From positions 1-58,193 of the forward strand of contig CAMQZX010000001.1 in assembly GCA_947039785.1 (NCBI GenBank): a stretch of 58,193 bases of DNA, read 5' to 3'. The translations under genes were made by a program, and so were the position numbers. Positions 37,593 through 55,880 of the stretch are shown one piece after another; position 1 is the first letter of the stretch; every line of letters starts with the position of its first letter. The notes under the pieces were generated by a model. That model made no database searches and was not told the origin of the DNA. It saw nothing but the letters and a program-made list of their open reading frames with translations. This DNA comes from an uncultured Lachnospiraceae bacterium. GTDB taxonomy: Bacteria > Bacillota > Clostridia > Lachnospirales > Lachnospiraceae.

Positions 37593-38530
37593 TCATTTAC
37601 ACCCTTCAACCATTCGCGTATGGTCAGCAATTTGTTCTTGTTCTCCGATGGTGAATAGTGGAAACCATGACTTGATATGGCATACCCAGCCAAGCTGTGT
37701 CGAACCTGACGGTTCCCATTCTTGTGGACATCTTCAATGGAAAATGCTGGTGCCAGTGCTCCCATAGTATCAGGCAGGATATAAGCCTCCCTCTCTGAAT
37801 ATGGCAAAATATAAAAGCTATCCGGCATCAGGCGGCTAAGTTCCTGTAAGGTATCCCAGTATAATACACTTGCCGCTCCTCCAGGTCCCGTGACCACATA
37901 ACCAAGGCTATCCTCTGCCTCTCCATTGTTCAGACAGCACGAAATACCTTCCAGCACGTTTTCAATCTTCTCACACAACGGATAGATTTTGCTCTCCATG
38001 GATACCAGCGAATGTTCCAGTACAAAATTATGAAAATCACTTTTTCTCATTTTCCAGGATGCCAGATGTTTATTGGTTACTTCTGCCTGATAATAACGCC
38101 CGTCTCCCAGCGGTGCGTGAAACATATAGTAGAGCACCATGTCCCCCATAACCTGGTAAGGCATATCATTCTTTTTCAGGGCTTCCAGGTCACTTCTATG
38201 GTTTGCGGCATATACTGCCACATATTCCGGCTGTTCCAACTGGCCTACTGCAATACGCAGATCTTCCGCTTCCGCATCAGAGAACACTTCCATCGCCCGG
38301 TCTGCCAATTCCTCTTCCCAGGTGTCAAACATCTCCGCTCTCAAAAAAGCCTCCCTTACCGGAATGACGGGGCAGTACCGCCCCTCCTGCTCAAATAAAA
38401 TTGTGATTCCCTCGGTCGGGAGACCCCTAGCCACCGTTCTAACTTCCCCGCGAATTGCGGAATCCTCAAAAGCGGAACGAATACATTGCTGGTAAGCATC
38501 TGAAAACTGTTTATATAATTTGAGGTTCAT
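37589..38530 (-). CDS. Paralogue P7 (subfamily A, closest to P1)
   Basis: The ORF track lists 37589..38596; ATG 38530 is preferred (AAGGAG 10 nt upstream). Motifs: RYCPVIPV, NDMPYQVMGDMVLYYMF, VTNKHLASW, VTGPGGAASVLYW, FYILPYS. Confidence 0.65.
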   Translation of the reverse strand: MNLKLYKQFSDAYQQCIRSAFEDSAIRGEVRTVARGLPTEGITILFEQEGRYCPVIPVREAFLRAEMFDTWEEELADRAMEVFSDAEAEDLRIAVGQLEQPEYVAVYAANHRSDLEALKKNDMPYQVMGDMVLYYMFHAPLGDGRYYQAEVTNKHLASWKMRKSDFHNFVLEHSLVSMESKIYPLCEKIENVLEGISCCLNNGEAEDSLGYVVTGPGGAASVLYWDTLQELSRLMPDSFYILPYSEREAYILPDTMGALAPAFSIEDVHKNGNRQVRHSLAGYAISSHGFHYSPSENKNKLLTIREWLKGVNE

Positions 38531-38592
38531 ATTCTTATCTCCTTTATGATTAAATGAAAAAAGCAGGTTCTTTTCTGAATCGCTCTGAAAAG

Positions 38593-39525
38593 TCACCTGC
38601 TATGGTTTTTATTCACTTTTGGCTTCTGCCGCATCCTTTGACTTGTTTTACGGATCTCATCTGTTTTCCGGCTATAAACATAAATATAATCGGATAAATC
38701 TTTTTCCCTCTGCTGAAAACCATTTTGTTTAGAGTCGTAGAGGGTTTCCTGAATCCATTTTCTTCCGTCCCTGTTTTTATTTGATAATGCCACGCATTGA
38801 TTGATACTTGTAGGAAATAGTATCATATCGCCACCCAGTTTATCTGACAGCTCGTGTACTTTTTCTTTGTATAAAAAAGCAGAAGCACCCCAGTAAAAGC
38901 TCTCTGTTGTCATAATGTAGATATCCTTCTTTTCCGGTTCTGTCCCAAACGGTTCCACGGAAACAGCCCTTTGATTTTCCGGATTATCAAGCGACCACTG
39001 ATAAAGGGTATCAAAATCCATTCCAAACTCATTCAGCATTTCACTTGTCACTCTTAAATTAAGGTGCATATCTTCAAGCAAACAATCTGTTGAATGATAA
39101 ATAATCCTCAATACAATGGCAAGGTCCCCGTCTCCATATAGCTTATGTGGGAAATTGTCCAATACCTCTTGATTTCTTTTCGCGTTCATCAATGTCGGAA
39201 CTACTAGATTTGGCGATAACACCCCCATCTCTTTAAATGCGGCTTTGGTGATCCGGTCATCCCGCAATAAAAACTCTAGCGAATTCCTGACTACCAGCCA
39301 CAGGGGTTCTCCCAACTGTGTATGACGGTTATATGCTACAAAAGGAAATATTTCTGAGCCTTTCTCTGGGCTGCCCTGTAAACTGATCACACAGCCATCC
39401 GAAATATGGTCAGGCAGCACCACCTTCCACCCTAATCCCATCTTTTGTAAATTATTGTTTAATTCATATACAAAGGTTTCATAAAATTCCCTTTTCTCTA
39501 TGATTGAATATCTATCGTTTCTCAA
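38593..39525 (-). CDS. Paralogue P6 (subfamily D, closest to P5)
   Basis: ORF track (TTG start). Motifs: VVPTLMNAKRNQEVL, DLAIVLRIIY, VTSEMLNEFGMDFDTLY, WGASAFLYKE, ILFPTS. Tail KVNKNHSR. Confidence 0.6.
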   Translation of the reverse strand: MRNDRYSIIEKREFYETFVYELNNNLQKMGLGWKVVLPDHISDGCVISLQGSPEKGSEIFPFVAYNRHTQLGEPLWLVVRNSLEFLLRDDRITKAAFKEMGVLSPNLVVPTLMNAKRNQEVLDNFPHKLYGDGDLAIVLRIIYHSTDCLLEDMHLNLRVTSEMLNEFGMDFDTLYQWSLDNPENQRAVSVEPFGTEPEKKDIYIMTTESFYWGASAFLYKEKVHELSDKLGGDMILFPTSINQCVALSNKNRDGRKWIQETLYDSKQNGFQQREKDLSDYIYVYSRKTDEIRKTSQRMRQKPKVNKNHSR

Positions 39526-39534
39526 ACCCTCCCC

Positions 39535-40440
39535 CTATCTGCCTCGTTTTTTCGTTTCTTTTAACTGGCTGGGAGTAATCATACGAAACTGTGCGGTTTC
39601 ACAATTATAGTGGTATAGATTCCCAGACAGGGGCTTTATACTTCCAGTGATTACCTCTTTACTACTGTGTAGTGCATTAGATATATAATCTATGCCCTTT
39701 TGGTCTAAAAGCGGCATTGCCAAAAAATGGTCAACGCTCATAGGAACCAATAAGATATCATCCCCCATAGTTTCTGCAAGTTCATACATTCTGGTTTTGT
39801 AAAGAATACCTGCAGCGCCTAAATGTTGACCAGTATTCGTTACCACATAGAAGGGAGGTAAATCCTCTACTGTTTCATCGGGTGATATAATATCTATCAT
39901 CTTGTGCAACTCTATCATCTGTACAGACTCAACATTCCTCGGATTATCCAGGGCCATTTGATAAAGTTCATCATACCTCAGCCCCCATCCCTGTAAGATA
40001 TCGTCTGTTACCACAAGGTTGAGATTGATACCGCCCAGGGACTGATATGCAATTTGAAGTATAACTGCTAAATCTTCAAACCTTGAATATGGAACGGTTT
40101 TCAATAGTTCCTCATTTTCCTCTGTGTTCATAAAAGTGGGAATTACCATATCTGCATGAAAAAGCCCCATATCCATCAGTGCACATTTTGTGCTCTCATC
40201 ATCAAAGAAATCCTGTGTTGCTTTCCGTGCAGCGACTCCCCAGGGCATCCCCTGCAAAAACTCCTGGTAATAATCGTGAACTTTAATCGGAGGAAAATCA
40301 TGCCCTCCACCATGGATTACCACCAAAACTTCTTCTCTGCCGCCTGTGTTCTCATACTTAGCCCGCCATGGAACACCCAGCATTTTTAAATTATAGTTGA
40401 CTTCATGGGTAAAAAACTGGATGAATTCTTCATATTCCAT
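39535..40440 (-). CDS. Paralogue P5 (subfamily D)
   Basis: ORF track (SD AAGGAGG). Motifs: VIPTFMNTEENEELL, DLAVILQIAY, VTDDILQGWGLRYDELY, LGAAGILYKT, ILLVPMS. Tail KETKKRGR. Confidence 0.65.
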   Translation of the reverse strand: MEYEEFIQFFTHEVNYNLKMLGVPWRAKYENTGGREEVLVVIHGGGHDFPPIKVHDYYQEFLQGMPWGVAARKATQDFFDDESTKCALMDMGLFHADMVIPTFMNTEENEELLKTVPYSRFEDLAVILQIAYQSLGGINLNLVVTDDILQGWGLRYDELYQMALDNPRNVESVQMIELHKMIDIISPDETVEDLPPFYVVTNTGQHLGAAGILYKTRMYELAETMGDDILLVPMSVDHFLAMPLLDQKGIDYISNALHSSKEVITGSIKPLSGNLYHYNCETAQFRMITPSQLKETKKRGR

Positions 40441-40463
40441 CTTTGTCTGTCCTCCTTGAGATT

Positions 40464-41429
40464 TTATCTGCTTTGCTTTTTACCGACCAGTGTTTTCTCA
40501 TGATTCATAGTTGTCTCCAATTTCTGATCAATGACAGCCTGTAATTGTTCTATACCACCCTTGAGCCTGTAAAACTTCCCCTCTGTATACGAATAAACCT
40601 GCCTGGACAAAAATAACCGCGCGTCCGTATCCTCCGTATACTCCCGGATTTTTCTTTGTACCCACATATCCTGTATACGGCTTTCCGGTAATATGGCCGC
40701 TTTTCGTTCTGAATACGGTACGATTATGACCCGCTCATGAAAAGCCTCTTCAAATTGACGCAGCACTTCGGGGTAAAGTATCGCCCCGGCACCGTTCAAT
40801 CCATACAGCTCATATGGCGCATTGTAGATATCTTCTGCTCTTGCAATCACAGGTATATGGCCAAAATCATATGGTTGAAGGCTTTCCACCCAGTCATAAG
40901 CACAGGCACCGATTTTCTGTGCCTCGCATTGCCTAACAATATTGAATAATTCTTCGGCTGAAAACTTCCATTTTAGGAGATGGTCTTTTGTTACAATACT
41001 TTCCATTGTACCGCCGAAAGGCAGCTCATAATCAAACCTGAAATATACTGCCATGTCACCTACTGCCAAATATGGTATACCCTTACCCCGCAGGATTTCT
41101 TTGCTTTTCTCAAAGTTTGTTACACAGGCTAAAACACTTTCTATGCATTCCACCTGTTCTCTTTGTACTGTACCAAACTCCCGGAAACAATCCAATGTAT
41201 CCTTCACAATAGAAAACATTGGTCTAGCATTTTTGCAATAATCCGAATAAATTTCCTGAAGGTCTATGCAATGACAGATTTTATCGCCTAAATCCAGGGT
41301 TGCCTTTTCCAGCGATAACCCTTCCCCTATCACGACCGGTCTGATGGAATAACCATGCTGGTCTAAAAGTTCTGCTATTTTTTGTAGATAAGCAACCTTA
41401 AATTGGTCATAGTTTATTAAGTTCATCAA
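40464..41429 (-). CDS. Paralogue P4 (subfamily C)
   Basis: ORF track. Motifs: GKGIPYLAVGDMAVYFRF, VTKDHLLKWKFSAEELF, YGLNGAGAILYPE, VIIVPYS. Tail VGKKQSR. The start is either TTG 41429 or ATG 41426. Confidence 0.65.
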   Translation of the reverse strand: MMNLINYDQFKVAYLQKIAELLDQHGYSIRPVVIGEGLSLEKATLDLGDKICHCIDLQEIYSDYCKNARPMFSIVKDTLDCFREFGTVQREQVECIESVLACVTNFEKSKEILRGKGIPYLAVGDMAVYFRFDYELPFGGTMESIVTKDHLLKWKFSAEELFNIVRQCEAQKIGACAYDWVESLQPYDFGHIPVIARAEDIYNAPYELYGLNGAGAILYPEVLRQFEEAFHERVIIVPYSERKAAILPESRIQDMWVQRKIREYTEDTDARLFLSRQVYSYTEGKFYRLKGGIEQLQAVIDQKLETTMNHEKTLVGKKQSR

Positions 41430-41446
41430 TCCACTAACCCACCTAC

Positions 41447-42391
41447 CTATCTCAATTTTTGTTTCTCAATTTTCGGAGGAACTGCATGAATCAGGTTTCT
41501 GCTTTCCAGATCGTATTTAAAAACCCGCTCAGATAGTTTATGGCGTATTTCCCCTGTTTCTTCTTTCATTATATTCTCACTGGTCAGGCTCTCATATAAG
41601 TCTGACAGATTCCCAACACTTTGCGCATGGACATAAGCACCAAAGGCATCATTGGGAACAATCAGCATCTCGTCCCCTAATTTATCATACACCAGTTCCA
41701 TAACTTTCGGATAGAAGATTGCACCAAAGCCATTCACACCATAGACATTGTAGACTTGCTTCAGTTCCAATGGCACACCATCCGCCGGCCTAAAAAGGAT
41801 TGTTTTATCATTTTCATATCTGTTTGTAAGTGAATCGTACATATTTACGATACCCACTCCTATTTCATTTGCATCCTTGTATCTGACTTTCTCAAAAAGT
41901 TCCTCCACACCGATTCCCCATTTTTCCAAATGCTCTTTTGTAACATCTCCGCAGTACGATCTCTCCCCTCTTTCAATACAGAATTGGAAAGTGACCGCCA
42001 TATCCTGATATGGCATATATGCAATGTTTCCCTCCACCAGTTTATCCTCATATTCTGCCAAATTCATAGGATATATAAGTACATGCTCTATCTGCTCAAA
42101 TTGTTCGCGCGGTATCCACTCATCCCCATCAAATATACCCAGAATCTGCGTGACCGCCTCGTCTAACTCGTTGTTCTCAGCAACATAGCAGTTAAGATAC
42201 ACCAATTCCATCGGAATACTGGGGCAAACTAACTCCCCTCCACCTTTCAGCATAATGGCTTCAAATGGCGTGCCTTCAGCTATCAGCTTCAGTTCCTCCC
42301 CTCTGTCTCTTTCTTGTAGCTGGTCTTGAAATTCATCAATAAAATCCTCTCGTAATTCGTCATATGCTTCGTTCTCACTATAATAATACAT
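41447..42391 (-). CDS. Paralogue P3 (subfamily B, closest to P2)
   Basis: ORF track. Motifs: LIAEGTPFEA, VCPSIPMELVY, GNIAYMPYQDMAVTFQF, VTKEHLEKWGIGVEELFEKVRYKD, YGVNGFGAIFYPKVM, MLIVPND. Tail IEKQKLR. Confidence 0.65.
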   Translation of the reverse strand: MYYYSENEAYDELREDFIDEFQDQLQERDRGEELKLIAEGTPFEAIMLKGGGELVCPSIPMELVYLNCYVAENNELDEAVTQILGIFDGDEWIPREQFEQIEHVLIYPMNLAEYEDKLVEGNIAYMPYQDMAVTFQFCIERGERSYCGDVTKEHLEKWGIGVEELFEKVRYKDANEIGVGIVNMYDSLTNRYENDKTILFRPADGVPLELKQVYNVYGVNGFGAIFYPKVMELVYDKLGDEMLIVPNDAFGAYVHAQSVGNLSDLYESLTSENIMKEETGEIRHKLSERVFKYDLESRNLIHAVPPKIEKQKLR

Positions 42392-42441
42392 CTATCTCCT
42401 TCCCTTCTGGCCGTCTGCGCTTCTCCCGATTAAAGCGGTTT

Positions 42442-43335
42442 TCATTTCACTCTATGCTTTTCAATGGTATGTTCCATTGCCGGGACCAGGTTTTTCCTGC
42501 CGGTATCGTACTTAAATATCTTCCCAGAAAGTACAAGGTGCCTATCGCCAGTCACCAGTTTCACACGATTGTCCTCCTGTAATTCTTCTTGCAGTTTTGC
42601 AGCACTCATAATATCCGGTGTCTGAATATAAGCCGTATAGGTTTCTTCAGGTACAATCAGCACTTCACTGCCCATTTTTTTTACTACCTGCTCCATCACT
42701 TTTGGATAAAGGGCAGCACCAAAGCCATTGACGCCATACAAAGCAGCCTGCTGTGAATCCTCTGATTTTTTTCCCACCTGCTCTATGGTTTTAATTTCGC
42801 CCCAAATTTGCTCCAGGTCTTTATACCTTACTTTTTCAAAGAGTTCCTTTGCATTTATCCCCTGCCTATTCAGCCATTCCCTTGTAACATCCCTGCGATA
42901 CGACCTCTCATTGTCCTCAATGCAGAATTGATAAGTGATCGCCATATCTTCGAAGAGAAAATATGCAATATCATTTTCTTCCAGCTTATCCCTGCAATGT
43001 GATAGATTTACCGGAAACACTATTACATGTTCCAGTTGTTCCAGCCGCTCCGGGGATATCCATTCTGCCTCATCCTGAATCTCCAAGATAGTAGATACGG
43101 CCTCATCAATCTCTCGAATGGCAAAAATATAGCAATTTCTGTACACCAGTTCCATAGAGATACTGGTACATAATAAAGGTCCATTCCCTTTGTATGTAAA
43201 GGATTCAAAAGGAGTACCTTCCGCCACTATTTCCAACTTCTCCCCATTTCCTCTGCGTTCTAGCTGTGCCTTATATTCTTTAATGAAATCCTCCCGGACT
43301 TCCTCATATGCATGGTTTTCATCATATTCGCGCAT
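42442..43335 (-). CDS. Paralogue P2 (subfamily B)
   Basis: ORF track. Motifs: IVAEGTPFES, NDIAYFLFEDMAITYQF, VTREWLNRQGINAKELFEKVRYKD, YGVNGFGAALYPKVM, VLIVPEE. Tail IEKHRVK. Confidence 0.65.
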   Translation of the reverse strand: MREYDENHAYEEVREDFIKEYKAQLERRGNGEKLEIVAEGTPFESFTYKGNGPLLCTSISMELVYRNCYIFAIREIDEAVSTILEIQDEAEWISPERLEQLEHVIVFPVNLSHCRDKLEENDIAYFLFEDMAITYQFCIEDNERSYRRDVTREWLNRQGINAKELFEKVRYKDLEQIWGEIKTIEQVGKKSEDSQQAALYGVNGFGAALYPKVMEQVVKKMGSEVLIVPEETYTAYIQTPDIMSAAKLQEELQEDNRVKLVTGDRHLVLSGKIFKYDTGRKNLVPAMEHTIEKHRVK

Positions 43336-43395
43336 TTTGGTTCTCCTCTTCGTCTATTTACCATTTCCTGCATCTGTAGACTCCCGTACCGACTC

Positions 43396-44310
43396 TTAGA
43401 CCAGGGTTTTTTTCACCAATGAAGACTGGTGCACCGTCAGGGTTTTACTCTTGAGACTATAATACAAAACCGACTCTGACAACGGATGGCTTACAAATCC
43501 CTTTAAGGATTTTTTTCTTTCGAGACGCATCTGAAGGTCAGCAGGTGTATACTGGTCGGCGGCATATATAGCGGTTTCCTCTGCTGTTACTGGAAGCAGG
43601 TACAGATCCGTGTTGACCATTTCTGCAAATTCATCCAGAATATTCCTATAAAGCATGCCTGCCGCGCCTCCCGGACCTGTCAGCCGCCAGGCACTTGCGC
43701 GTTCATTTGTAATCTTTCCTCTCCCAAGCGTAAAGCCTGCCTCCAAGCCTTCCCGTATAACGGCTGCAACCGGTTCAATCTGCACACTATACTGGGAGAA
43801 AGCATTGTCTGACACGCACGCATGCAGTTGATCTACATGCATTCCCCACCGCTGTAAGTCCTCTTCATCTACGGGCATGGTGTATACAAGTTTTTCACTT
43901 TCCTCTTTCACACGGAACCGATAAAAGATACACATATCTCCCAGTCTGGTATACGGCAGCTCCAATTCTTCCAGCCTCATCTGGTATTTGTTTGCATTCA
44001 CTGCATGGAACTCTACAAACAATGGATTCTTGACCGTATCCATCTTCAATCGGATACCTCCGGTTTCCGCCGTCTGAAATTCCTGCAGTGTCTCCGAAGC
44101 CAATATCCTGACTGGCAGCATTTCATACTGGCTTCTCAAAAACAGTTCCTCTATGCTGACCATAGGGCAGTACCTATCCTTGAAAGTCATTGTGATTGAT
44201 TCACCTGGTAGTCCTTCCATAACCAAGTTCAACGCTCCTAACGTTTTGCTTTTCTCCATCAGGTCAATGAACTGATAGAGAAACTCTTCTTTGAAATTAA
44301 AATAATCCAT
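43396..44310 (-). CDS. Paralogue P1 (subfamily A)
   Basis: ORF track (SD AAGGAG). Motifs: RYCPMVSIEELF, LELPYTRLGDMCIFYRF, VDEEDLQRWGMHVDQL, LTGPGGAAGMLYRN, LYLLPVT. Tail SLVKKTLV. Confidence 0.65.
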   Translation of the reverse strand: MDYFNFKEEFLYQFIDLMEKSKTLGALNLVMEGLPGESITMTFKDRYCPMVSIEELFLRSQYEMLPVRILASETLQEFQTAETGGIRLKMDTVKNPLFVEFHAVNANKYQMRLEELELPYTRLGDMCIFYRFRVKEESEKLVYTMPVDEEDLQRWGMHVDQLHACVSDNAFSQYSVQIEPVAAVIREGLEAGFTLGRGKITNERASAWRLTGPGGAAGMLYRNILDEFAEMVNTDLYLLPVTAEETAIYAADQYTPADLQMRLERKKSLKGFVSHPLSESVLYYSLKSKTLTVHQSSLVKKTLV

Positions 44311-44333: not shown

Positions 44334-45338
44334 TTATCCGATTGCCTGTTTCCGGTCCAGATTGCTATTCCTGTTCAAATATTGAATCACTGCCTTTTTT
44401 CTTTCTGCAACAAGAAATTCATTCCAATCTTTCCCATATGGCGGGAACCGGACTTTAACGTGATATCCCATCTCTATATATTTCTTGCGTATAAGTGCCG
44501 CTGCTTTCCGGCCTGCCTTATCATTATCAAGATACAGGCTTATTCGTTTAATCTGTGGATTTTCTAGCAGGAACCGGTCCAATGCCCCGTCCCAGGTTGA
44601 CCCTAATGCCAACTTGTTTGACTGCCCATCACGCTTATAATCCATATAAGACATCAGGTCAATGGCTGCCTCAAATACCTTGACTTCTTTATTTTTCTTG
44701 TTTCTTACATTGAAACCATAGGTTTTATCGTTGTTCTCCACGTCCCCTTTAAACGGGTTTCCATAATTATCCACCGTTCCCCTCATACTGGCAAACCGTG
44801 CTGTACCAAAGGAATCCCTGCCAATAAAAACCACGTTATGATATCTGCGTGTTTCATAAATCAGCTTTTTTTTAACGAACCAGTCAACTACTTCTTTGCT
44901 CAGGCAGCGCGTTTTTAACAGATAGGCATATAACCTCCGATAATTGTCGTTTGGTTCGGGAAGCACAAACTCCCCTTTCCCTTCTTGTTCTTTATTTTGC
45001 TCTTCCTTTCTTCTCTCGTGGTTTTTCCTGCTTGTATCATCTTTAAATGATTTATCCTCATACCGATAACCGGCCTCGTTCAACAAATAGATAACCGCCT
45101 CACGAAAATCCATATAGCAAAATTGTCTCAGAAACTCAATGTTATCCCCGTTGTGACCGTCCTGGCCCTCGGGTACGGAAAAACGCAGCCAGCTCCTACG
45201 ATTTTTAATCCTTATAGAATCATGTTCTTTCAATGTATAGTAACTGCCTACCCGCTTCACCGTGAAGCCCTGCCTTTCAGCAATAGACACCAGGTCCACG
45301 CTTCTGGCTATCTCTAATTCTTCATCTGTAAACTTCAT
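44334..45338 (-). CDS. DUF3991 + Toprim domain protein (conjugative primase-like)
   Basis: ORF track. N-terminal region VDLVSIAERQGFTVKRVGSYYTLKEHDSIRI...GDNIEFL. C-terminal Toprim features EVKVFEAAIDLMSY and LYLDNDKAGRKAA (E...DxD). Confidence 0.75.
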   Translation of the reverse strand: MKFTDEELEIARSVDLVSIAERQGFTVKRVGSYYTLKEHDSIRIKNRRSWLRFSVPEGQDGHNGDNIEFLRQFCYMDFREAVIYLLNEAGYRYEDKSFKDDTSRKNHERRKEEQNKEQEGKGEFVLPEPNDNYRRLYAYLLKTRCLSKEVVDWFVKKKLIYETRRYHNVVFIGRDSFGTARFASMRGTVDNYGNPFKGDVENNDKTYGFNVRNKKNKEVKVFEAAIDLMSYMDYKRDGQSNKLALGSTWDGALDRFLLENPQIKRISLYLDNDKAGRKAAALIRKKYIEMGYHVKVRFPPYGKDWNEFLVAERKKAVIQYLNRNSNLDRKQAIG

Positions 45339-45361: not shown

Positions 45362-46417
45362 TTAAAATTTCATGTCAAAATAACTGCTGATTTCCGGAAA
45401 GTCTCTTTCATACTCCTCCAGATACGTTCTGCAGGCGCTCCCTTCTTTTGACAAGTGGCAAAATTCACGGAAGCTCATCTGCTTATACATCTGGGGCTGG
45501 TTACACCACCTGGACAGGTTTACATACATTCCCCGGTAAGGTGATTCCTGATATTTCTCATACCGCATGATATATGGATACGCACGCACCCCCATTAGAA
45601 TCCGGATACGCTCAAATGCCTGTAAGATATCCTGTTTCCAGAAAGTCCAGTCATATCTTCCATCTGCATCAAACCCAGTTAATACATAGAACTTGATCCT
45701 TTTTGATTCCTGGAATATTGGGTTTATGATCTTCATCTTTTCTATGACTGTTTCTTTATCCTTGATATTGTCAAAGGCAAATAATAAGTCGCCATCCAAT
45801 CTACAAGATGCCAGTTCCCTGGATTTTTGCCTGGTAATCAGCCTGATATCCAGTCCTTGCCGGAACTGGACCGGACGGCCGGTTTCCCGTAGTTGTCCCA
45901 ATAATGCACTCCACTCCCCACATGCCAGAAAATTATCATCCAGCAGACAGATCTTCTTTTTCTGTGGATTGTAAAATTCGTACACTGGGCTTGCAGGAAC
46001 GGATACCGTTTTATTTTTGTTCACACAAAAAGGGCATTGCCTAAAGCAGCCCCTTGTTAAAAACCCAATAGAATAATCCCGATAATACTTATACTTCTTA
46101 CTCTTTTTTCCTTCTTCTCCCTTACCTTTAAGCCAATCCGCATACAGACTGTAATCCGGCATGGCATGCTCTATTTCGTAGGGCAGCTCGGGAGCCTGGT
46201 CTAAATAAAACCCAGTACCTCCATATTCTACATTCTCCATCTTTAAGACTTCCGGCGGATACCTCGTAGCCGTAAAGACCTTTGACAGATATACCTTATC
46301 AAACTCATTGAAGCCTGAATACTCCGTCAGCAAATGTATCTGATCCCCCATCTGCTTATGGAATCCGCTGATCTTCATGCATGCCAGATTCGGCATGCGG
46401 TGCCTGTTCTTATCCAA
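45362..46417 (-). CDS. Radical SAM-like protein with a short N-terminal Rossmann/B12-binding-like module
   Basis: ORF track. The CX3CX2C cluster motif is TRGCFRQCPFCV. The N-terminus MPNLACMKISGFHKQMGDQIHLL resembles the N-terminal module of B12-binding-type radical SAM enzymes. Confidence 0.7.
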   Translation of the reverse strand: MDKNRHRMPNLACMKISGFHKQMGDQIHLLTEYSGFNEFDKVYLSKVFTATRYPPEVLKMENVEYGGTGFYLDQAPELPYEIEHAMPDYSLYADWLKGKGEEGKKSKKYKYYRDYSIGFLTRGCFRQCPFCVNKNKTVSVPASPVYEFYNPQKKKICLLDDNFLACGEWSALLGQLRETGRPVQFRQGLDIRLITRQKSRELASCRLDGDLLFAFDNIKDKETVIEKMKIINPIFQESKRIKFYVLTGFDADGRYDWTFWKQDILQAFERIRILMGVRAYPYIMRYEKYQESPYRGMYVNLSRWCNQPQMYKQMSFREFCHLSKEGSACRTYLEEYERDFPEISSYFDMKF

Positions 46418-46428
46418 TAAATCAGCAT

Positions 46429-46905
46429 CTATAATTCCGATTCTCGACTCTCATCACCTTCTTTACACAAATTTTTCATCCATCTTTGCTTTTTACATTG
46501 CGGTGCTGTTGTATGTCTGCGCCTGGCAGGTGTATCCCAGGAGCCGCCCCCTGCAATCTCTTTCTCACATTCCCACCCTGCCGCTTTTAAGGAAGCACCG
46601 GATTCAGAGATAAGGATATAAGTGATAATCCGCTCATATCCCATCTCTTTTGCAATCCGGGCTACCCGCCCGTATAGGAAGCTACAGGCATTGGCTGTAC
46701 CGTCTGTGCAGCAACGCGTTACTTCCAGCGTTTTTCCATCGTCTAAATGCCTGGATACTGGCCTGCCGCACTGTATCACGCCACATATTCTGCCATGCTC
46801 AGTACATGCGACACGGAATTTGTCCCGGTATACAGGGCTATGATGCCTATGATTCTGCGCGACATATTCATTTGCCGCCTTTAACTCAATCGGTACTGCT
46901 TTCAT
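46429..46905 (-). CDS. GNAT-fold-like small protein of a phage/ICE family (HHRHH ... GRPV.R.LDDG ... TDG..NACS signature)
   Basis: ORF track. NHRHHSPVYRDKF..GVIQCGRPVSRHLDDGKTLEVTRCCTDGTANACSFLYGRVARIAKEMGYERIITY...GASLKAAGW matches a conserved mobile-element family I recall, possibly named the XF1762 family. Function unknown. Confidence 0.55.
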   Translation of the reverse strand: MKAVPIELKAANEYVAQNHRHHSPVYRDKFRVACTEHGRICGVIQCGRPVSRHLDDGKTLEVTRCCTDGTANACSFLYGRVARIAKEMGYERIITYILISESGASLKAAGWECEKEIAGGGSWDTPARRRHTTAPQCKKQRWMKNLCKEGDESRESEL

Positions 46906-46967
46906 TCACTTTTTTATATAAATTAGTTCCGGTTGGAACGTAAACCTCCTGTTGTTGATTTATTGTT

Positions 46968-47828
46968 TTAGTCTGGTCCCATGTCCATAAAATCCGCGAG
47001 GCACAACTGTCCCTCTACATTTTTATCCTCCATCCACCACCGGAACACGTCCTCTCCGTTCTTCCACTTAGTAGGTTTCCCCGCCGCATGGATTGCCACT
47101 AACATTTTATCAAACGCCCGGATATAAGCTGCCTTATACTTTGGGAAGTCAGCAAACTCTTTGTAGCGGTTTTTTCCAGCCATCGGGCACCCTACACAGC
47201 CAACTCTTTTATAACCCATATCATAAAGCGGATTATAAGGCATATGGTTGGAACGGATATAATCCCAGATGTCTTTATGTGTCCAGTCAATGATTGGGTT
47301 GGACACTACCCTGCCACGGATTGCACACCGCTCAATAACCAGCCGCTTATCATCGTTGTCGTTCATCAGAGTAATCCTATTCTCGACTTTTGGGGCAGCC
47401 GCTTCTAACTGTCCCCTTTTGGACCGTTTGGTGCTTTCGTCCCAGCGCACACCTGTTGATACCAGTCTGTCCGGTGTTGTGTTCTCTTTTAGGATTTCAC
47501 AACAGTAACGCTGCATCCTGGTGGGCGGCATCTTCTTTTTGACAATCAACTGCCACATGCTCAGTGGCGGCATATGGATAATACATGGGATTCCCTTTTC
47601 TTTTAAACCTCGAAATTTCTCCCTGATATAGTACACCGTATCGGGAGCATCGACTGTTGTATGAGAATTGTGGGCCTCAAATTCAACTCCTGACCGGATA
47701 AACAAATCCAGAAGTACGTCAGAATCCTTGCCCCCACTGTAAGTACAGATTATGGGGGCATCATAGTACCTCTTTGACATTTCACTTGCTAATTTAATCC
47801 GTTCAATGCTCTTCGTCTCTAAATCCAA
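46968..47828 (-). CDS. PAPS reductase-like PP-loop ATPase family protein
   Basis: ORF track (TTG start, no clear SD). PP-loop motif CTYSGGKDSDVLLDL. C-terminal Cys pair VGCVGCP. Confidence 0.75.
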   Translation of the reverse strand: MDLETKSIERIKLASEMSKRYYDAPIICTYSGGKDSDVLLDLFIRSGVEFEAHNSHTTVDAPDTVYYIREKFRGLKEKGIPCIIHMPPLSMWQLIVKKKMPPTRMQRYCCEILKENTTPDRLVSTGVRWDESTKRSKRGQLEAAAPKVENRITLMNDNDDKRLVIERCAIRGRVVSNPIIDWTHKDIWDYIRSNHMPYNPLYDMGYKRVGCVGCPMAGKNRYKEFADFPKYKAAYIRAFDKMLVAIHAAGKPTKWKNGEDVFRWWMEDKNVEGQLCLADFMDMGPD

Positions 47829-51616: not shown

Positions 51617-52162
51617 CTAAAACACTTCTATATATCCAGCCTGCACTTTTAGCCTGATTTTCATTTCAGGTAGACGTTTTCCCGCAAACTGGACCGGTAC
51701 TTTTAATGTTACGATTGCATCAATTTCAAATCTCTGTTCATTTTCCGGTGTTCCAGGTGCAAGCGGCGCATTACGTGCAGTAACACTTAAATCCGATATG
51801 CTATATTCCAGAACCCCACCTGTATATTTTACATGCCGCCCGGATTCAACTTTTGTTCCAAGGATTTTATCCATTTTTGACAGCACATTTCCTTTATCTA
51901 CACTATACTTAAAACCTCCATTATTGGGCTGATATCCTCCACTGTATCCTTCCCTGACACCGTGATAAACGTTTGCATAATTATCATTTACAGTTATCAT
52001 GATAGCCTCCTGTGCCGCGTCCCTTACGCCATTGGCTATGATCTTTAGCCGATAAAACTCCAAAAATCCGCACATTATTAACATCAATACCAATGTAACC
52101 GCAATCACAAATGGGAAAGAGGAACCACGCCTATCTTTTAAACAGCAAATCAGGCGCTTCAT
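51617..52162 (-). CDS. TadE/TadG-like pseudopilin-type protein
   Basis: ORF track. N-terminal GSSFPFVIAVTLVLMLIMCGFLEF (prepilin-like hydrophobic segment). Located in the Tad locus. Confidence 0.55.
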   Translation of the reverse strand: MKRLICCLKDRRGSSFPFVIAVTLVLMLIMCGFLEFYRLKIIANGVRDAAQEAIMITVNDNYANVYHGVREGYSGGYQPNNGGFKYSVDKGNVLSKMDKILGTKVESGRHVKYTGGVLEYSISDLSVTARNAPLAPGTPENEQRFEIDAIVTLKVPVQFAGKRLPEMKIRLKVQAGYIEVF

Positions 52163-52554
52163 TTATGATATACCTCACTCTTTCCTGTAGCACTAGCCCT
52201 TAAGGTAATTGGAAAGGAACCAAAATTCCCAAATAACCCAAGGTCCCGCTGCAACGTCAATTTTACAGTAATCTCCTGATTTAGTTGGATATTACCCTTT
52301 TTTGACCACTCAACTTTAGGATTTAGTCCGGTCCTTTCTCGTAATACCTGTTCCCGCCTAGTGGTCTCAGTTCCGACTCTGCCACTCATTTCAGCCTCAC
52401 GGCACAATTCCACAGCAAATGTATCTAACTGATTCTTAGCCAAAAAAACCGGAAATACGCTGACCGCCAATGCAATCACCAGCATGGCACACAATACCAG
52501 TACGCATATGTCTATATATCCCTCTCCACGATTAGTTTTTAATATTTTTTTCAA
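52159..52554 (-). CDS. TadE-like / DUF4320-like pseudopilin-type protein
   Basis: ORF track. N-terminal NRGEGYIDICVLVLCAMLVIALAV. Located in the Tad locus. Confidence 0.55.
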   Translation of the reverse strand: MKKILKTNRGEGYIDICVLVLCAMLVIALAVSVFPVFLAKNQLDTFAVELCREAEMSGRVGTETTRREQVLRERTGLNPKVEWSKKGNIQLNQEITVKLTLQRDLGLFGNFGSFPITLRASATGKSEVYHK

Positions 52555-52580
52555 GTTCCTTGACCTCCTTTCATTTGGAG

Positions 52581-53456
52581 CTAGAACATACCTCCTAATG
52601 ACTTAATGATTTCAAACACGATAATCGCAAGGTAAGTCAATAAGAAGCACATAAGCATGAGAAACGAAAAAACCCTGATTTTAGGCGGTATTTTCTGGGC
52701 CTCACTTTTTAATTTCTGTAATTCAAGCTGTTTAAAATCATGAGCAAGCATCTGGAAATATACCACGCTGTTATCTCCACGCAAAACCCCAATCAGTCCT
52801 CTGACAACATCAGACAACATTGGAGAGTTTAACCGTGCTTCAAATCGAGTAAGTGCCGCCTCATAACTGGAGGATCTCATGTCTGCCACAAGTACACCTA
52901 GCTCCTCCCCAAATTCCGCACCGGCATTTTTTCTAAAATTCTCTACCATTGAAAGCACATCACGGTTATTCTGCAGCTCCTGTTCAAGATTAGCAACAAA
53001 ACGTGGCAGTTCGTCTTCAATTGACTTTCTTTTCGTCTTTAACATCTCGTCTGCGCGCTGAATTTCCTTAAAGTAAACCATGACAGCAAGAAACACAATA
53101 ACAGGTGTTAGGAGCGGAAAAAGAAACAAACACGGAATAATGCCAGCCATCAGTAAACCAGCTTTTGTAAGTGCATACGCCTGATATACTTCCGGTGTCA
53201 TATTAATCCCTGTTGCTTTCAGCACATTTTTCATTCGGCTTTTCCGATATTCGTCCATTCGGATTACATGAGACAATCTCATGGCTCCTTGCAGTAAAAA
53301 CGTATCTAACGCCGCCGACCCTTTTTTACTATTTCTTCCCCTGTCCAGTAATGCCTTTTCTGTCTTCATATATGGCATTTTTAACAAATCCGCTGCCAGG
53401 AAGAACATTCCCAGAAAGAGAAATCCTCCAAATAATAACAGTAATAACACTGACAT
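52581..53456 (-). CDS. tadC: TadC-like type II secretion system F-family membrane protein
   Basis: ORF track. Polytopic membrane protein; the second of two adjacent T2SSF-like genes downstream of the CpaF ATPase. Confidence 0.65.
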   Translation of the reverse strand: MSVLLLLLFGGFLFLGMFFLAADLLKMPYMKTEKALLDRGRNSKKGSAALDTFLLQGAMRLSHVIRMDEYRKSRMKNVLKATGINMTPEVYQAYALTKAGLLMAGIIPCLFLFPLLTPVIVFLAVMVYFKEIQRADEMLKTKRKSIEDELPRFVANLEQELQNNRDVLSMVENFRKNAGAEFGEELGVLVADMRSSSYEAALTRFEARLNSPMLSDVVRGLIGVLRGDNSVVYFQMLAHDFKQLELQKLKSEAQKIPPKIRVFSFLMLMCFLLTYLAIIVFEIIKSLGGMF

Positions 53457-53460
53457 CTCC

Positions 53461-54390
53461 CTACCTCCTGTATTCTATCGGTTTTGTCAGCCTGACAACG
53501 ACCGCAGTAGAGACAAAGATGATTGCCGCAGTAATGGCAAGTATCACCTGTCCCATTGGTGTGTGCATCAAAGTGTCATACCAGCTCTTGTTGAGAAAAT
53601 AAAGCAGCGGGATATTACCAATCACAAAGATTGCCATCGTGATAAATTCTTTCCTCGGCTCCACAATCAAATATTCCAGTTCAGCATTGACGATACGGAT
53701 ATCGCTTAATTTTGTTACGATTGGTGTCAATGTTGTCTTCAAACTCCGATCATACTGACAATCACACAGGGCATCGCACCATTCGCGGAATACATCATTA
53801 TCAATTTTCTCCCTCAACTCCTTTAGTGCTTCATGAACATCCGGATTTACTAAGTTGATCCGCACAATAAAATCCTGGAATACCCTCTGGACTGGCGGAT
53901 TCAAATACTGAATATTTTCCTCTATCGCAGTTAGAATGTCCTCCGTCCGCAGATAGCCCGTCGTAATAACGCTTAATGCTGTCTCCAGCTCTGCGGCTAC
54001 ATTTTTTTTGTAATTACTGGCTGACAGAATTACATACCAAAAAGGGAAGAACATAAATCCAACAGCCATCACCGGAGCCAGAAAAAAATTTCCAATCATG
54101 ATGGCAACCGAGGCCCCCACAGCAAACAACACCAGGGCGGCAGCACAAATAACCGAAAATTGCTTTTCCCTACCCGTCATTTTAAGTACCTGCTGTGCCT
54201 CAATGATTGCCTTTTTCAGAAATCTTGCTTTTTTCCTTTTTGTTACTGTATGGATTTCATTCCGAATATTCTCAGGTTCTTTTGCCAGAAAGCCGAACAG
54301 TCCATCTGTAAATTCTATTGGTCGAATCCCCAAAAGAAGAAATCCACCCACTATCATACCAAGGCATGCAAGAAGCTGTATACTTGTCAA
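53461..54390 (-). CDS. tadB: TadB-like type II secretion system F-family membrane protein
   Basis: ORF track. Polytopic; overlaps the CpaF stop by 4 nt. Confidence 0.65.
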   Translation of the reverse strand: MTSIQLLACLGMIVGGFLLLGIRPIEFTDGLFGFLAKEPENIRNEIHTVTKRKKARFLKKAIIEAQQVLKMTGREKQFSVICAAALVLFAVGASVAIMIGNFFLAPVMAVGFMFFPFWYVILSASNYKKNVAAELETALSVITTGYLRTEDILTAIEENIQYLNPPVQRVFQDFIVRINLVNPDVHEALKELREKIDNDVFREWCDALCDCQYDRSLKTTLTPIVTKLSDIRIVNAELEYLIVEPRKEFITMAIFVIGNIPLLYFLNKSWYDTLMHTPMGQVILAITAAIIFVSTAVVVRLTKPIEYRR

Positions 54391-55880
54391 GATTCCTCTC
54401 CTCCCTCTCCCTTTGAACGGAACCGGTTAAGTGTCTCCATTGGCATCCCATTCTCCAGCAAACGCTTATAAAGCCCATCCGAAATGGAATTCATTACCCT
54501 GTGTTTCCCATTAACCACAAAATAATCTCCTTCCAACTGGTTCTCCATGATCTCGTACTGATACAGTGGACGATATCTCCGTGTACCGTCAGGCTTTATC
54601 TCGCATTCCATAATCTCCATGATTACCCTCTGCCGGTTTTCCAACTGCTTACAAAAGACTATGATAGGGTATGCTTCGGTCACATATCCCATCAATGTCT
54701 CGTCCGACATATCCACGGCACGCTTACACAAGGACACCATACGGCGGTATGTAGCCTCACACGAATTGGAATGGATGGTTGTAACCACCGCCACACCAGT
54801 TCTTGCAGCTTCCTGGGCGGCGTTTGCTTCCGCCCCTCTCATTTCTCCGACCACCAGAATATCAGGATTAAATCGAAGCGCAATATCCAAAAGGGCAATC
54901 TGGTCAATTCGCTGCCGGTCATTCTCACTGTCTCTTGTAAGAGTGTGGACAACGGAATTTAACACTTTTCCACTTTCCTCCCTTATTAGATCAAGTTCAC
55001 GGCTACCATTTTCAATAGTAAAAATTCTTTTCCGGTCAGGGATTGTAGTAAGCAACCAGCCGGCCACCGTTGTTTTTCCGGAACTTGTAGCACCTGCAAC
55101 ACACACCGAAATTCCATACCGAATACATTCACTCAAAAAGTCTAACATCTCTCCCGTGGCAGTTCCACCAGAAATAAAATCCTCCTTTTTCATACTCTGG
55201 GGATTTACGATTCGGATTGAAGCGGCAAGACCTACCTCTTCATCTACAACTGGAGTTTTTAACACCGCTATACGGATATTTTTAGCCAGTGTTCCAGTCA
55301 CCACAGGACTTGCATCATCAAGGATAGTTCCTGAAACATGGAGCATCCTGCGGATCACATTAATAGCATGAGAAGGGCTGTCAAAATGTTCTTCCAACTT
55401 TTCAGTCCCACCACCGCTGTACTGGATCTCAATATCCTTCCAGCTATTAATGTCTATTTCTTCCACTCCCTCTCCAAAAATGTACTTTGTTAGAAAAGAA
55501 AACTCCGCCATTTCCGTGTATAGGTTGTCAACAAGTTCCTGATTTGACATTCCCTGAACTGCAACCCGGTTTTCCTGAACATATTTAGTAATGTAACGCT
55601 TCATCTGCCTTTTTACATCATCATTATTTCCATCAGTCAAAAGGGAGCTGTAACGGCTGGCAATGTGTTCCTGTACCTCCTGTAGCACCGTTGCAAAATC
55701 TTTCCCCTCCACGGCTGCAAAAAAGAGGTCATCTGCACTCTTACTCACCACTTCTACCGGCTCTCTTGCAACCGGCTCCACTGGGGCTGCCTGTGTTGGC
55801 ATAAGTTCCTGCATCCGCGAACCCCACTCTGAATTTTTTCCCTCATTAAATACTCCTCGCGTCTTTCTTTCCCCTAACAT
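54387..55880 (-). CDS. cpaF: CpaF/TadA-type pilus assembly ATPase
   Basis: ORF track. Walker A GATSSGKTT, Walker B ILVVGEMRG, His box TTIHSNS. Confidence 0.85.
   Translation of the reverse strand: MLGERKTRGVFNEGKNSEWGSRMQELMPTQAAPVEPVAREPVEVVSKSADDLFFAAVEGKDFATVLQEVQEHIASRYSSLLTDGNNDDVKRQMKRYITKYVQENRVAVQGMSNQELVDNLYTEMAEFSFLTKYIFGEGVEEIDINSWKDIEIQYSGGGTEKLEEHFDSPSHAINVIRRMLHVSGTILDDASPVVTGTLAKNIRIAVLKTPVVDEEVGLAASIRIVNPQSMKKEDFISGGTATGEMLDFLSECIRYGISVCVAGATSSGKTTVAGWLLTTIPDRKRIFTIENGSRELDLIREESGKVLNSVVHTLTRDSENDRQRIDQIALLDIALRFNPDILVVGEMRGAEANAAQEAARTGVAVVTTIHSNSCEATYRRMVSLCKRAVDMSDETLMGYVTEAYPIIVFCKQLENRQRVIMEIMECEIKPDGTRRYRPLYQYEIMENQLEGDYFVVNGKHRVMNSISDGLYKRLLENGMPMETLNRFRSKGEGGEES

Follow-up and report, generated by a model that had tools for sequence, protein, structure and literature searches.

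Three modification-type genes on a Lachnospiraceae conjugative element: a likely lineage-specific juxtaposition of separately mobile cassettes around a radical SAM gene

Three adjacent genes at positions 45362-47828 of contig CAMQZX010000001.1, from an uncultured Lachnospiraceae bacterium, encode a PAPS-reductase-like PP-loop ATPase, a compact GNAT-fold protein of the XF1762 family and a divergent radical SAM enzyme. The window, by which we mean the whole stretch of DNA that was analysed, is 58,193 nt long. On balance, the trio probably reflects three nucleic-acid-modification cassettes, each mobile on its own, that came to lie side by side in one lineage, in the establishment and anti-restriction part of a mobile element. 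It is not a conserved module, and related loci do not show an obligate three-gene system. The three genes usually occur apart, and they therefore look like separate add-on genes rather than one three-step pathway. The earlier note had proposed a single multi-step pathway or defined system; this idea was not supported, as co-occurrence is low and asymmetric and XF1762 is mostly solo and is absent or lost in sister elements. Our data nevertheless support the view that each of the three proteins falls in an enzyme class that acts on nucleic acids in mobile elements.

Results

Layout of the trio and its host element

An ORF check of the window placed all three genes on the minus strand with gaps of 62 and 11 nt, as previously described. 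The PAPS-reductase-family PP-loop ATPase (46968-47828, 286 aa) is followed in the direction of transcription by the XF1762-family GNAT-fold protein, a compact Mom-like protein (46429-46905, 158 aa), and by the radical SAM enzyme (45362-46417, 351 aa as listed). The primase-like gene reported next to the trio lies directly downstream on the same strand (44334-45338) and encodes DUF3991 and Toprim domains (PF13154 and PF13155). Further along the minus strand are eight tandem DUF5688 paralogs (36687-44310; PF18941 matched at 43396-44310 and a local HMM matched all eight ORFs) and a C5 cytosine DNA methyltransferase with an N-terminal zinc ribbon (34989-36503; PF00145, E=3e-57). Genes for a relaxase, a type IV coupling protein, a VirB4-like ATPase and a Tad-like pilus in the window identify the element as conjugative. 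It also encodes C5 and N6/N4 methyltransferases, of which two were confirmed rather than the three or four counted before. From gene orientation and the position of the relaxase, it is plausible that the trio lies in the leading region of the element. Within the window, neither tRNA genes nor other RNA-repair genes were found near the trio. Sulfur assimilation or small-molecule metabolism had been named as the competing home for these proteins; no such context was found for any of the three, and the window holds no cys genes. A promoter and terminator scan around the trio gave nothing exceeding shuffled expectation, a megablast of the region against plasmids gave no match, and literature searches for DUF5688/DUF3991 or for radical SAM plus PAPS-like genes in phages gave nothing on this combination.

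The PAPS-reductase-like protein

Assignment of the first protein to the PAPS-reductase family on the basis of its SGGKDS motif was sound: it matched PF01507 (E=1e-25), phrog_424 (E=6e-44) and a BrxP-like profile (E=1e-21). Conserved columns in an alignment of 25 sequences comprise SGGKDS, a CC at 109-110 (RYCC), C168 and a CxxC at 211-214 (GCVGCP), the last of which aligns with GCAPC of PDB chain 7lhr. The motifs listed for this protein in the earlier note are present. The same alignment contains no conserved C-terminal catalytic Cys, the family consensus there being GQxSL. Assimilatory (P)APS reductases (CysH) combine a PP-loop with a catalytic Cys in an ECGLH-type C-terminal tail. The protein falls far short of every curated NCBIfam equivalog cut-off. 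CysH and sulfur assimilation were rejected on scores (TIGR00434, 48 vs 165 bits; TIGR02055, 49.7 vs 235) and on the lack of cys genes, and BREX type 4 BrxP because the match spans profile positions 113-257 of 779 and PglZ and BrxC genes are absent from the window. Analogies had also been drawn to Dnd phosphorothioation and to QueC/QueE deazapurine synthesis, and both fail on sequence scores and context. TIGR03183 reached 27.8 vs 290 bits, the PADLOC DndC match was partial (E=2e-7), and there are no DndA/D/E neighbours; the QueC match was negligible (E=0.007), no QueE-like match was obtained, and DpdA/TGT, QueD and FolE are absent nearby.

The XF1762 protein resembles Mu Mom

The second protein matched NCBIfam XF1762 (NF045478) over its full length (E=4e-65, 218 bits against a cut-off of 50) as well as phrog_1384, 'Mom-like DNA modification protein' (E=2e-37). 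Its motif string reads NHRHH...GRPVSRHLDDG...TDGTANACS, so that the motifs listed earlier are present but 'HHRHH' was slightly off, the sequence reading HRHH. A literature search for 'XF1762' found no paper. Searches of PDB sequences with the XF1762 protein, the XF1762 profile and the radical SAM protein returned only noise, and a structure-based search was therefore needed for both families. Using Foldseek, the top PDB fold match of the AF2 model (pLDDT 82.6) was Mu Mom (8bv8, chain 8bv8_B; E=7.9e-8, TM 0.72), which bears out the GNAT fold and the comparison with Mom made in the earlier note. Residues H19-R20-H21, E61, R64, S75 and Y78 are invariant among 31 sequences, and hhalign of the XF1762 alignment maps R64, S75 and H19 onto Mom R111, S124 and H58, with a probability (4%) that is low because the template was a single Mu Mom sequence. 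At 85-100% identity, the Mom relatives from IMG/VR were too similar to add depth to the Mom profile. Pfam PF25680 ('Mom') was matched by 13 of the 31 relatives (best E=9e-7, 29.2 bits), whereas the window protein scored 11.8 bits and did not reach the gathering cut-off of 27.1. Taken together, the modelled fold match and the tentative alignment of catalytic R111 and S124 with invariant R64 and S75 argue that this GNAT really is Mom-like.

Phage Mu Mom is a GNAT that moves glycine from Gly-tRNA(Gly) to the N6 of adenine in dsDNA, giving N6-carbamoylmethyl-dA. An HTH-like insertion in Mom (~residues 175-209) is essential for momylation (PMC13219725). XF1762 proteins end at about residue 145-158 and do not have this insertion, and their substrate may therefore differ from that of Mom. 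Between their last two strands lies a conserved basic loop of about 20 aa (119-138) that is modelled by AF2 with low confidence and predicted to be disordered. Among cultured phages, XF1762 is solo in most and elsewhere lies beside methyltransferase or ParB genes.

An uncharacterised radical SAM family

The radical SAM identity of the third protein held up well. It matched phrog_9298 'radical SAM domain protein' (E=6e-59), and its CFRQCPFC, a CX3CX2C motif at residues 124-131 (C124, C128 and C131), is nearly invariant among 61 relatives. The window protein matched no Pfam or NCBIfam model, and PF04055 was matched weakly by 47 of the 61 relatives (best E=6.9e-6). The family is uncharacterised; it forms about 5900 clusters when grouped at 90% identity, and neither Pfam nor NCBIfam has a model for it. 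The AF2 model (pLDDT 95.7) consists of a small N-terminal alpha/beta domain, a partial TIM-barrel core and a C-terminal helical domain. Its best PDB fold match was a weak one to the class B radical SAM methylase MgmA (9ccb; E=1e-4, TM 0.51, 11% identity); BlsE and a viperin-like enzyme were also matched, and the viral fold matches were radical SAM proteins. At the N-terminus, where a Rossmann/B12-like module had been suggested before, the model shows a short alpha/beta domain; the B12-binding domain PF02310 was matched by none of the 61 members. Long homologues gave only weak hints of fusion partners: a C5 methyltransferase fragment, a LAGLIDADG intein, a match resembling HhH (E=3e-4) and, at the C-terminus, a 'KYGENH' domain whose similarity to DUF7226 stayed below threshold. 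The listed TTG start leaves out a conserved N-terminal strand, IGIIDADLL, which is encoded in frame just upstream in a segment that has no canonical start codon. Judged from the sequence, the true 5′ end of the gene is probably near 46444.

The radical SAM gene is the hub of the neighbourhood

We compared 320 related loci, each set consisting of the 80 closest relatives per query with ±8 kb of flanking DNA. Partner frequencies within this distance ranged from 0 to 25%. Viral loci seeded with XF1762 contained the radical SAM gene in 8/80 cases and a PAPS-like gene in 14/80; loci seeded with the radical SAM gene contained XF1762 in 2/160 and a PAPS-like gene in 32/160; and viral loci seeded with the PAPS-like gene contained neither partner (0/80 each). 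This low, asymmetric pattern was unchanged after de-replication at 90%. The full trio was present only in the closest clade of the window (the window, L090, L330 and L332) and in one weak case, L083. Where two partners do co-occur, adjacency was compared with random placement. Adjacency far above random placement was found for XF1762 with radical SAM (6/7 loci and 3/5 clusters, p=0.004) and for PAPS-like with radical SAM (15/29 loci and 11/25 clusters, p=5e-5), but XF1762-PAPS adjacency was at chance level (p=0.36). Consistent co-occurrence of all three families, as the proposal in the earlier note would require, was not seen in these loci. XF1762 and radical SAM genes occur in both orders with spacings of 0-13 nt (methyltransferase-XF1762-radical SAM in L022, methyltransferase-radical SAM-XF1762 in L044 and radical SAM-XF1762 in L029), and two distinct PAPS subfamilies occur upstream of the radical SAM gene.

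The radical SAM gene is the hub of these neighbourhoods. It adjoins ParB–N6 methyltransferases, C5 methyltransferases, PAPS-like, Mom-like or DUF3991 primase genes far above chance, and its strong link to DNA methyltransferases is supported by a ParB_N+N6_N4 methyltransferase lying next to it in 38 of the 61 clusters that contain this methyltransferase (p=3e-20). A gene of DNA-modification type adjoins it in 50/69 viral loci; among genome loci with the radical SAM gene, 46/71 have no adjacent modification gene. In addition, a SAM-synthetase-like gene was found in 36/80 viral radical SAM loci, often two genes upstream, and independently annotated phages gave the same picture of neighbours. In one of these, LoVEphage, the radical SAM gene has an RtcB tRNA ligase gene at a distance of about 1 kb.

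Natural variants on a conserved backbone

The conserved backbone of the locus consists of the radical SAM gene, the DUF3991-Toprim primase, the DUF5688 array and the C5 methyltransferase. The primase is directly downstream of the radical SAM gene in 13 of the 14 genome loci that carry it, DUF5688 arrays are also present in L005, L090, L091 and L330-L332, and the C5 methyltransferase lies 1.5-5 kb downstream of the radical SAM gene in 10 of 15 radical SAM-DUF3991 loci. Both PAPS-like and XF1762 genes are missing from 12 of 15 more distant backbones of this kind. On the same backbone, L090, L330 and L332 carry the full trio, as does the window. Hungatella hathewayi (L091) has kept the PAPS-like and radical SAM genes with XF1762 cut down to a C-terminal remnant; XF1762 is absent from L331, which has the other two genes, and sits in another slot, after the primase, in L105. 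The PAPS-like and radical SAM genes are constant in the six closest relatives. Two of the variants are available as culture-collection strains, the full trio in Blautia schinkii DSM 10518 and the GNAT remnant in Hungatella hathewayi DSM 13479.

Discussion

If the trio is a juxtaposition of cassettes, the PAPS-like and XF1762 genes would be facultative insertions immediately upstream of the radical SAM gene. XF1762 alone probably acylates or aminoacylates a base in the DNA of the element, with aminoacyl-tRNA, as in Mom, or acyl-CoA as the likely activated donor. The radical SAM enzyme would use a [4Fe-4S] cluster, bound by CX3CX2C, to cleave SAM reductively and probably carries out radical C-H functionalisation or rearrangement on DNA, while the PAPS-like protein would be an Fe-S PP-loop ATPase that adenylates, and possibly thiolates, its substrate rather than a sulfonucleotide reductase. 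We infer DNA as the substrate only from the neighbouring genes and the relationship to Mom. All three would benefit the element by shielding its DNA from host restriction on entry or during replication.

The adjacency above random placement and the occurrence of both gene orders mean that facultative cooperation with the radical SAM enzyme may exist. A combinatorial pathway, in which this enzyme further processes a mark set by an adjacent N6 or C5 methyltransferase, Mom-like GNAT or PAPS-like ATPase, is a weakened form of the idea in the earlier note, and we consider it possible though rather improbable. Here, XF1762 would acylate or aminoacylate a base that the radical SAM enzyme then rearranges or alkylates, by analogy with phage M6 gp53. 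This precedent (PMC8989533), the non-random adjacency of the radical SAM gene to XF1762, PAPS-like and methyltransferase genes, the tight spacing in either XF1762 orientation, the two PAPS subfamilies upstream, the constancy of the PAPS-like and radical SAM pair in the closest relatives and the nearby SAM-synthetase-like gene in phages all favour such a pathway. However, the partners mostly occur without the radical SAM gene (72/80 XF1762 loci and 80/80 PAPS loci), most radical SAM genome loci have no modification gene next to them, XF1762 was lost while its neighbours stayed, and shared insertion hot-spots beside methyltransferase genes would give adjacency too. More broadly, and with comparable doubt, we speculate that, in the phages and conjugative elements of anaerobes, the radical SAM family could act on DNA as the second step shared across a combinatorial hypermodification toolkit. 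The enzyme may then elaborate marks made by the ParB-N6 or C5 methyltransferase, the XF1762 GNAT or the Fe-S PAPS-like ATPase, and in the window element XF1762 plus radical SAM, PAPS-like plus radical SAM, or both may make DNA bases not yet described.

Among the classic tRNA-modifying classes are PP-loop ATPases, GNATs and those radical SAM enzymes that have an N-terminal alpha/beta domain. The targets could accordingly be tRNA or rRNA, with host or element RNAs altered, for example, to evade anticodon nucleases; the third-best viral fold match of the radical SAM model is a tRNA methylthiotransferase-like protein, the RtcB gene of LoVEphage would fit, and Mom binds tRNA as a co-substrate (PMC13219725). 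We regard RNA targets as improbable, given that the predominant neighbouring genes encode DNA methyltransferases with ParB-like DNA-binding domains, primases and terminases, that the closest structure to XF1762 belongs to an enzyme modifying dsDNA, and that the window has no RNA genes of this type near the trio. Finally, it is very unlikely that the cluster is a set of partly non-functional, decaying passengers with a lost ancestral radical SAM start and a frame-dependent C-terminal extension of XF1762: one additional nucleotide relative to L090 does shift the ancestral GTG/ATG out of frame, and the remnant in L091 shows that decay happens in this lineage, but the upstream 'IG(I/V)IDADL' segment has kept its reading frame and is preserved intact across three lineages (72-100% identity), non-AUG initiation is suggested by a Shine-Dalgarno-like AGGTGA that precedes an ATH codon at constant spacing, no catalytic motif is damaged, and 225 sequences belong to the identical protein cluster.

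If the cassette reading is true, the trio itself is no new system and points instead to two large enzyme families in gut mobile elements. The Mom-like GNAT family is of interest as a miniature form without the insertion that Mom needs. The true lead is the radical SAM family, in view of its tight linkage with DNA methyltransferases, with a SAM-synthetase-like gene and with the primases of conjugative elements. To our knowledge, phage M6 gp53 is the sole radical SAM enzyme known to install a DNA modification. The present family, if it acts on DNA, would be a second and far more widespread one, broadening anti-restriction modification chemistry, and could help to explain restriction-resistant gut phage and plasmid DNA or unexplained kinetic signals in sequencing.

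Among known systems, Mu Mom is close to XF1762 in its GNAT fold, in the phrog_1384 grouping and in invariant residues that are putative equivalents of H58, R111 and S124. Mom is a single-enzyme pathway (PMC13219725), and XF1762 is likewise often solo in phages, frequently near methyltransferase or ParB genes. In contrast, XF1762 has about 145 aa compared with the 231-241 aa of Mom, and the basic loop replaces the essential HTH-like insertion. The PAPS-like protein shares the SGGKDS PP-loop with DndC, BrxP and APS/PAPS reductases, together with partial BrxP and DndC similarity, and the CC…CxxC cysteine set with Fe-S APS reductases; its gene differs from those of DndC, BrxP and CysH in having no DndA/D/E, BREX or cys genes near it in the window. 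With dpd-type QueC/QueE DNA modification, the likeness is limited to the two enzyme classes, PP-loop ATPase and radical SAM, being paired. Cobalamin-dependent MgmA resembles the window radical SAM protein in having CX3CX2C and a partial TIM-barrel after an alpha/beta domain, and differs in the weakness of the fold match and the lack of PF02310 in the family. Phage M6 gp53 acts on DNA, isomerising N-alpha-glycinyl-thymidine in hypermodified DNA, and the radical SAM family is similarly phage-borne among DNA-modification genes (PMC8989533). A tblastn search matched 17 phage records, of which M6 was not one, and so no relationship between the family and gp53 is detectable at this level. Plasmid leading regions typically carry orphan methyltransferases and genes that counter restriction (Samuel et al. 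2024, PMC11541004). Radical SAM, XF1762 and PAPS-like proteins are not among the functions discussed for those anti-defence islands, and the leading region of the window is putative; the block nevertheless resembles them as a run of co-oriented methyltransferase and other DNA-acting accessory genes next to a primase. Like them, it is carried by a conjugative element, and with respect to transcription it lies upstream of the relaxase.

The trio lies in a conjugative element

The three adjacent ORFs, all on the minus strand, encode a PAPS-reductase-family PP-loop ATPase (PAPS-like; 46968-47828, 286 aa), a GNAT-like protein of the XF1762 family (46429-46905, 158 aa) and a radical-SAM-like protein (rSAM; 45362-46417, 351 aa). 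Their coordinates and gaps of 62 nt and 11 nt matched exactly those of the earlier note. The trio sits within a long array of co-directional genes, and a promoter and terminator scan around it gave no signal above chance. A primase-like gene with DUF3991 and Toprim domains (44334-45338) follows 23 nt beyond the rSAM gene, then eight tandem DUF5688 paralogs of ~300 aa each (36687-44310, minus strand) and, after this array, a C5 methyltransferase (34989-36503). DUF5688 arrays of 2-7 copies also occur in related elements (L005, L090, L091 and L330-L332).

The window is a conjugative element, with genes for a MobA/VirD2 relaxase (28519-29973), a type IV coupling protein, a VirB4-like ATPase, an NlpC/P60 hydrolase, RadC and an N6/N4 methyltransferase (18848-19822). 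The VirB4, relaxase and coupling-protein set shares the element with a Tad/Flp-type pilus set (51617-57478, minus strand), consisting of RcpC/CpaB, a TadZ-like ATPase and a CpaF-type T2SSE ATPase (these three at 54.4-57.5 kb) and small pilin-like ORFs. The coupling protein gene is split by an ORF-less group II intron of ~730 nt (22825-23550, minus strand; Rfam RF02004 at 152.6 bits and RF00029 at 58.7 bits); the N- and C-terminal halves of its T4SS-DNA_transf domain lie in the flanking ORFs (21953-22903 and 23568-24860).

The three families occur mostly apart

The earlier note had suggested that the trio carries out a multi-step modification of DNA (or tRNA) and had called for co-occurrence statistics. 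These were obtained from four sets of 80 loci (±8 kb around the seed gene), in which all ORFs were scanned with family HMMs; the seeds were XF1762 in viral contigs, rSAM in species-representative genomes, rSAM in viral contigs and PAPS-like in viral contigs. The XF1762-seeded viral set contained rSAM in 8 loci and PAPS-superfamily genes in 14. Around rSAM, XF1762 was found in 2 and PAPS-superfamily genes in 20 of the 80 genome loci, with corresponding counts of 0 and 12 in the viral set, and neither rSAM nor XF1762 (0 of 80 each) accompanied PAPS-like in viral contigs. This pattern was unchanged after de-replication at 90% identity.

Across the four sets, the full trio was present only in Blautia schinkii DSM 10518 (L090), plus one weak case (L083). 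Within the closest clade of the window (rSAM identity 72-100%), the trio occurs in the window, L090, L330 and L332; L331 has PAPS and rSAM without XF1762, and Hungatella hathewayi (L091) has kept PAPS and rSAM with XF1762 reduced to a C-terminal remnant (residues 99-152). The remnant (L091 7808-7969, DSM 13479 chromosome, 57% identity) is flanked by PAPS-like and rSAM genes that are both intact; here a cultured strain has naturally lost part of the Mom-like gene. Among 15 rSAM-DUF3991 loci, all from the genome-seeded set and including L090 and L091, PAPS and XF1762 were both absent in 12, and a C5 methyltransferase lay 1.5-5 kb downstream in 10. At L105, XF1762 occupies another slot, behind the primase; in cultured phages it stands solo or next to methyltransferase or ParB genes. 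Given the low partner counts, the loss variants and the solo XF1762 genes of cultured phages, the three families are not components of one obligate system, and what was seen as a three-gene 'system' is a mosaic specific to this lineage. The theme of nucleic-acid modification stands; a three-step pathway is unsupported by families that meet in only 0-20 of 80 loci per set.

Neighbourhoods centre on the radical SAM gene

A DNA-modification-type gene adjoins rSAM in 50 of 69 viral cases. The commonest neighbour of rSAM, a ParB_N+N6_N4 methyltransferase fusion, occurs in 65/80 viral loci and directly adjoins rSAM in 42 of them, with both gene orders seen; C5 methyltransferases rank second. A SAM-synthetase-like gene (PF00438) was found in 36/80 rSAM-seeded viral loci, typically two genes upstream of rSAM. 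This gene is short (~276 aa, e.g. L173 4519-5346), matches the N-terminal MetK domain alone (PF00438, 37.7 bits) and is typically separated from rSAM by a ParB-N6 methyltransferase. In conjugative elements, the DUF3991 primase directly follows rSAM in 13/14 loci. Independent annotations show a methyltransferase followed by rSAM in Oscillospiraceae phage NatCom_21982, a PAPS reductase and, further along, DUF551, rSAM, a hypothetical gene and Dam in a Bacteroides LoVEphage, and a ParB-like gene adjoining rSAM in a Methanomassiliicoccales virus.

Adjacency was assessed where both families shared a locus, against random placement among ~16-26 genes; p values refer to clusters at 90% identity except where stated. 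rSAM adjoined the ParB methyltransferase in 38/61 clusters (p=3e-20), PAPS in 15/29 loci and 11/25 clusters (p=5e-5) and XF1762 in 6/7 loci and 3/5 clusters (p=0.004), the last pairs in either gene order at a spacing of 0-13 nt; XF1762 and PAPS were adjacent in 2/13 loci (p=0.36, locus level). The adjacency of rSAM with methyltransferase, PAPS and XF1762 keeps alive the main rival to separate cassettes, namely a facultative cooperation in which the rSAM enzyme elaborates marks made by its neighbours, although we consider this unlikely. Still lower probability is given to RNA as the target and to decay of the genes. A stronger lead than the trio is the rSAM family, with its links to methyltransferases, SAM-synthetase and primase.

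The 351-aa rSAM protein itself has no Pfam or NCBIfam match. Its family is very large, comprising 5937 clusters when grouped at 90% identity and 1936 representatives at 50%; the XF1762 and PAPS-like families number ~3200 and ~7400 clusters. In the rSAM family, PF04055 is matched weakly by 47/61 members and CX3CX2C is almost invariant. The structure model is very confident (pLDDT 95.7). In the PDB it is matched best by MgmA, a radical SAM methylase of class B (E=1e-4, TM 0.51), and its viral structural matches are radical SAM proteins, one of them methylthiotransferase-like. No cobalamin-binding domain was found by sequence in the 61 members.

The N-terminal segment IG(I/V)IDADL is conserved and in frame, yet the gene lacks a canonical start codon upstream of it (window 46380-46460, minus strand; L330 5900-6030; L331 1330-1450), an arrangement seen in three lineages at 72-100% identity; the GTG/ATG start of the B. 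schinkii gene is +1 nt out of frame in the window. An AGGTGA ~11-12 nt upstream of an ATC/ATA codon suggests that initiation may be non-AUG. Some homologues (P0252, P0276, P0283, P0290, P0293, P0312, P0332 and P0381) have a ~200-aa C-terminal extension in which the motif KYGENH(S/L)K is conserved; this domain is also encoded by its own gene just downstream of rSAM (L161 9127-9813, L165 9137-9844), and its sole match is a sub-threshold similarity to DUF7226. The LAGLIDADG domain of homologue P0289 (734 aa) is probably an intein, and in phage-like contig L006 (5183-7933) the C5 methyltransferase adjoining rSAM carries a Hint-type intein.

Proposed functions of the three proteins

The PAPS-like protein matches PF01507 (E=1e-25), phrog_424 and part of BrxP, and falls far under every curated NCBIfam cut-off (CysH 48 vs 165 bits, DndC 27.8 vs 290). 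Invariant across 25 relatives are SGGKDS, C28, the RYCC pair (109-110), C168 and GCxGCP (211-214), whose CxxC aligns opposite GCAPC of PDB chain 7lhr; the C-terminal cysteine of the window protein is not conserved among them. In APS reductases, CC…CxxC is the [4Fe-4S] ligand set, and in CysH-type enzymes the catalytic residue is the cysteine of a C-terminal ECGLH-type tail. Since the CC…CxxC set is kept, the C-terminal cysteine is unconserved and the cut-offs are missed, the protein is best assigned as a predicted Fe-S PP-loop ATPase. A sulfonucleotide reductase is excluded on the latter two grounds, and DndC or BrxP membership by the DndC score and the partial BrxP match.

Beyond the observed folds, motifs, conserved residues, gene neighbourhoods and natural loss variants, we propose that XF1762, solo like Mom, would attach an acyl or aminoacyl group to a base in DNA, and that the PAPS-like protein would adenylate, and possibly thiolate, its substrate. 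The rSAM enzyme may perform SAM-dependent radical chemistry on DNA; as precedent, phage M6 gp53 isomerises N-alpha-glycinyl-thymidine on DNA (PMC8989533), and a sequence search of phage records detected no relationship between gp53 and the rSAM family. The common payoff of the three genes could be escape from restriction, which would fit reports that the leading regions of plasmids contain orphan methyltransferases and anti-defence genes (PMC11541004).

Comparison with known systems

The defining features of Dnd, BREX, CysH and QueC/QueE were tested and place the cluster in none of them. The 158-aa protein matches the NCBIfam XF1762 family over its full length (218 bits, cut-off 50) and belongs to phrog_1384, 'Mom-like DNA modification protein', also the product name of Mu Mom in the phage collection; Pfam PF25680 'Mom' is matched by 13/31 relatives (best 29.2 bits). 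The best PDB match of its AlphaFold model (pLDDT 82.6) is phage Mu Mom (8bv8, E=8e-8, TM 0.72), with generic GNATs ranking behind. Five members of the alignment match MprF-type lysyl-phosphatidylglycerol synthase C-terminal domains and six match autoinducer synthases, all very weakly (E ~0.01-0.03), a similarity that can be taken only as a hint. In those enzymes the activated carrier is not CoA but aminoacyl-tRNA or acyl-ACP. Our literature search found no published assay of an XF1762 protein.

Mom works as a one-enzyme pathway, with Gly-tRNA(Gly) as donor and dsDNA as target (PMC13219725). A low-probability profile alignment places the invariant H19, R64 and S75 of XF1762 opposite Mom H58, R111 and S124, the latter two being essential for Mom (PMC13219725). 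Unlike Mom, XF1762 is without the essential HTH-like insertion; Mom homologues with demonstrated activity also carry an insertion (PMC13219725). In XF1762 the last two strands are joined only by a short basic loop (119-138) for which disorder is predicted. XF1762 represents a new variant of the Mom type, shorter than Mom itself.
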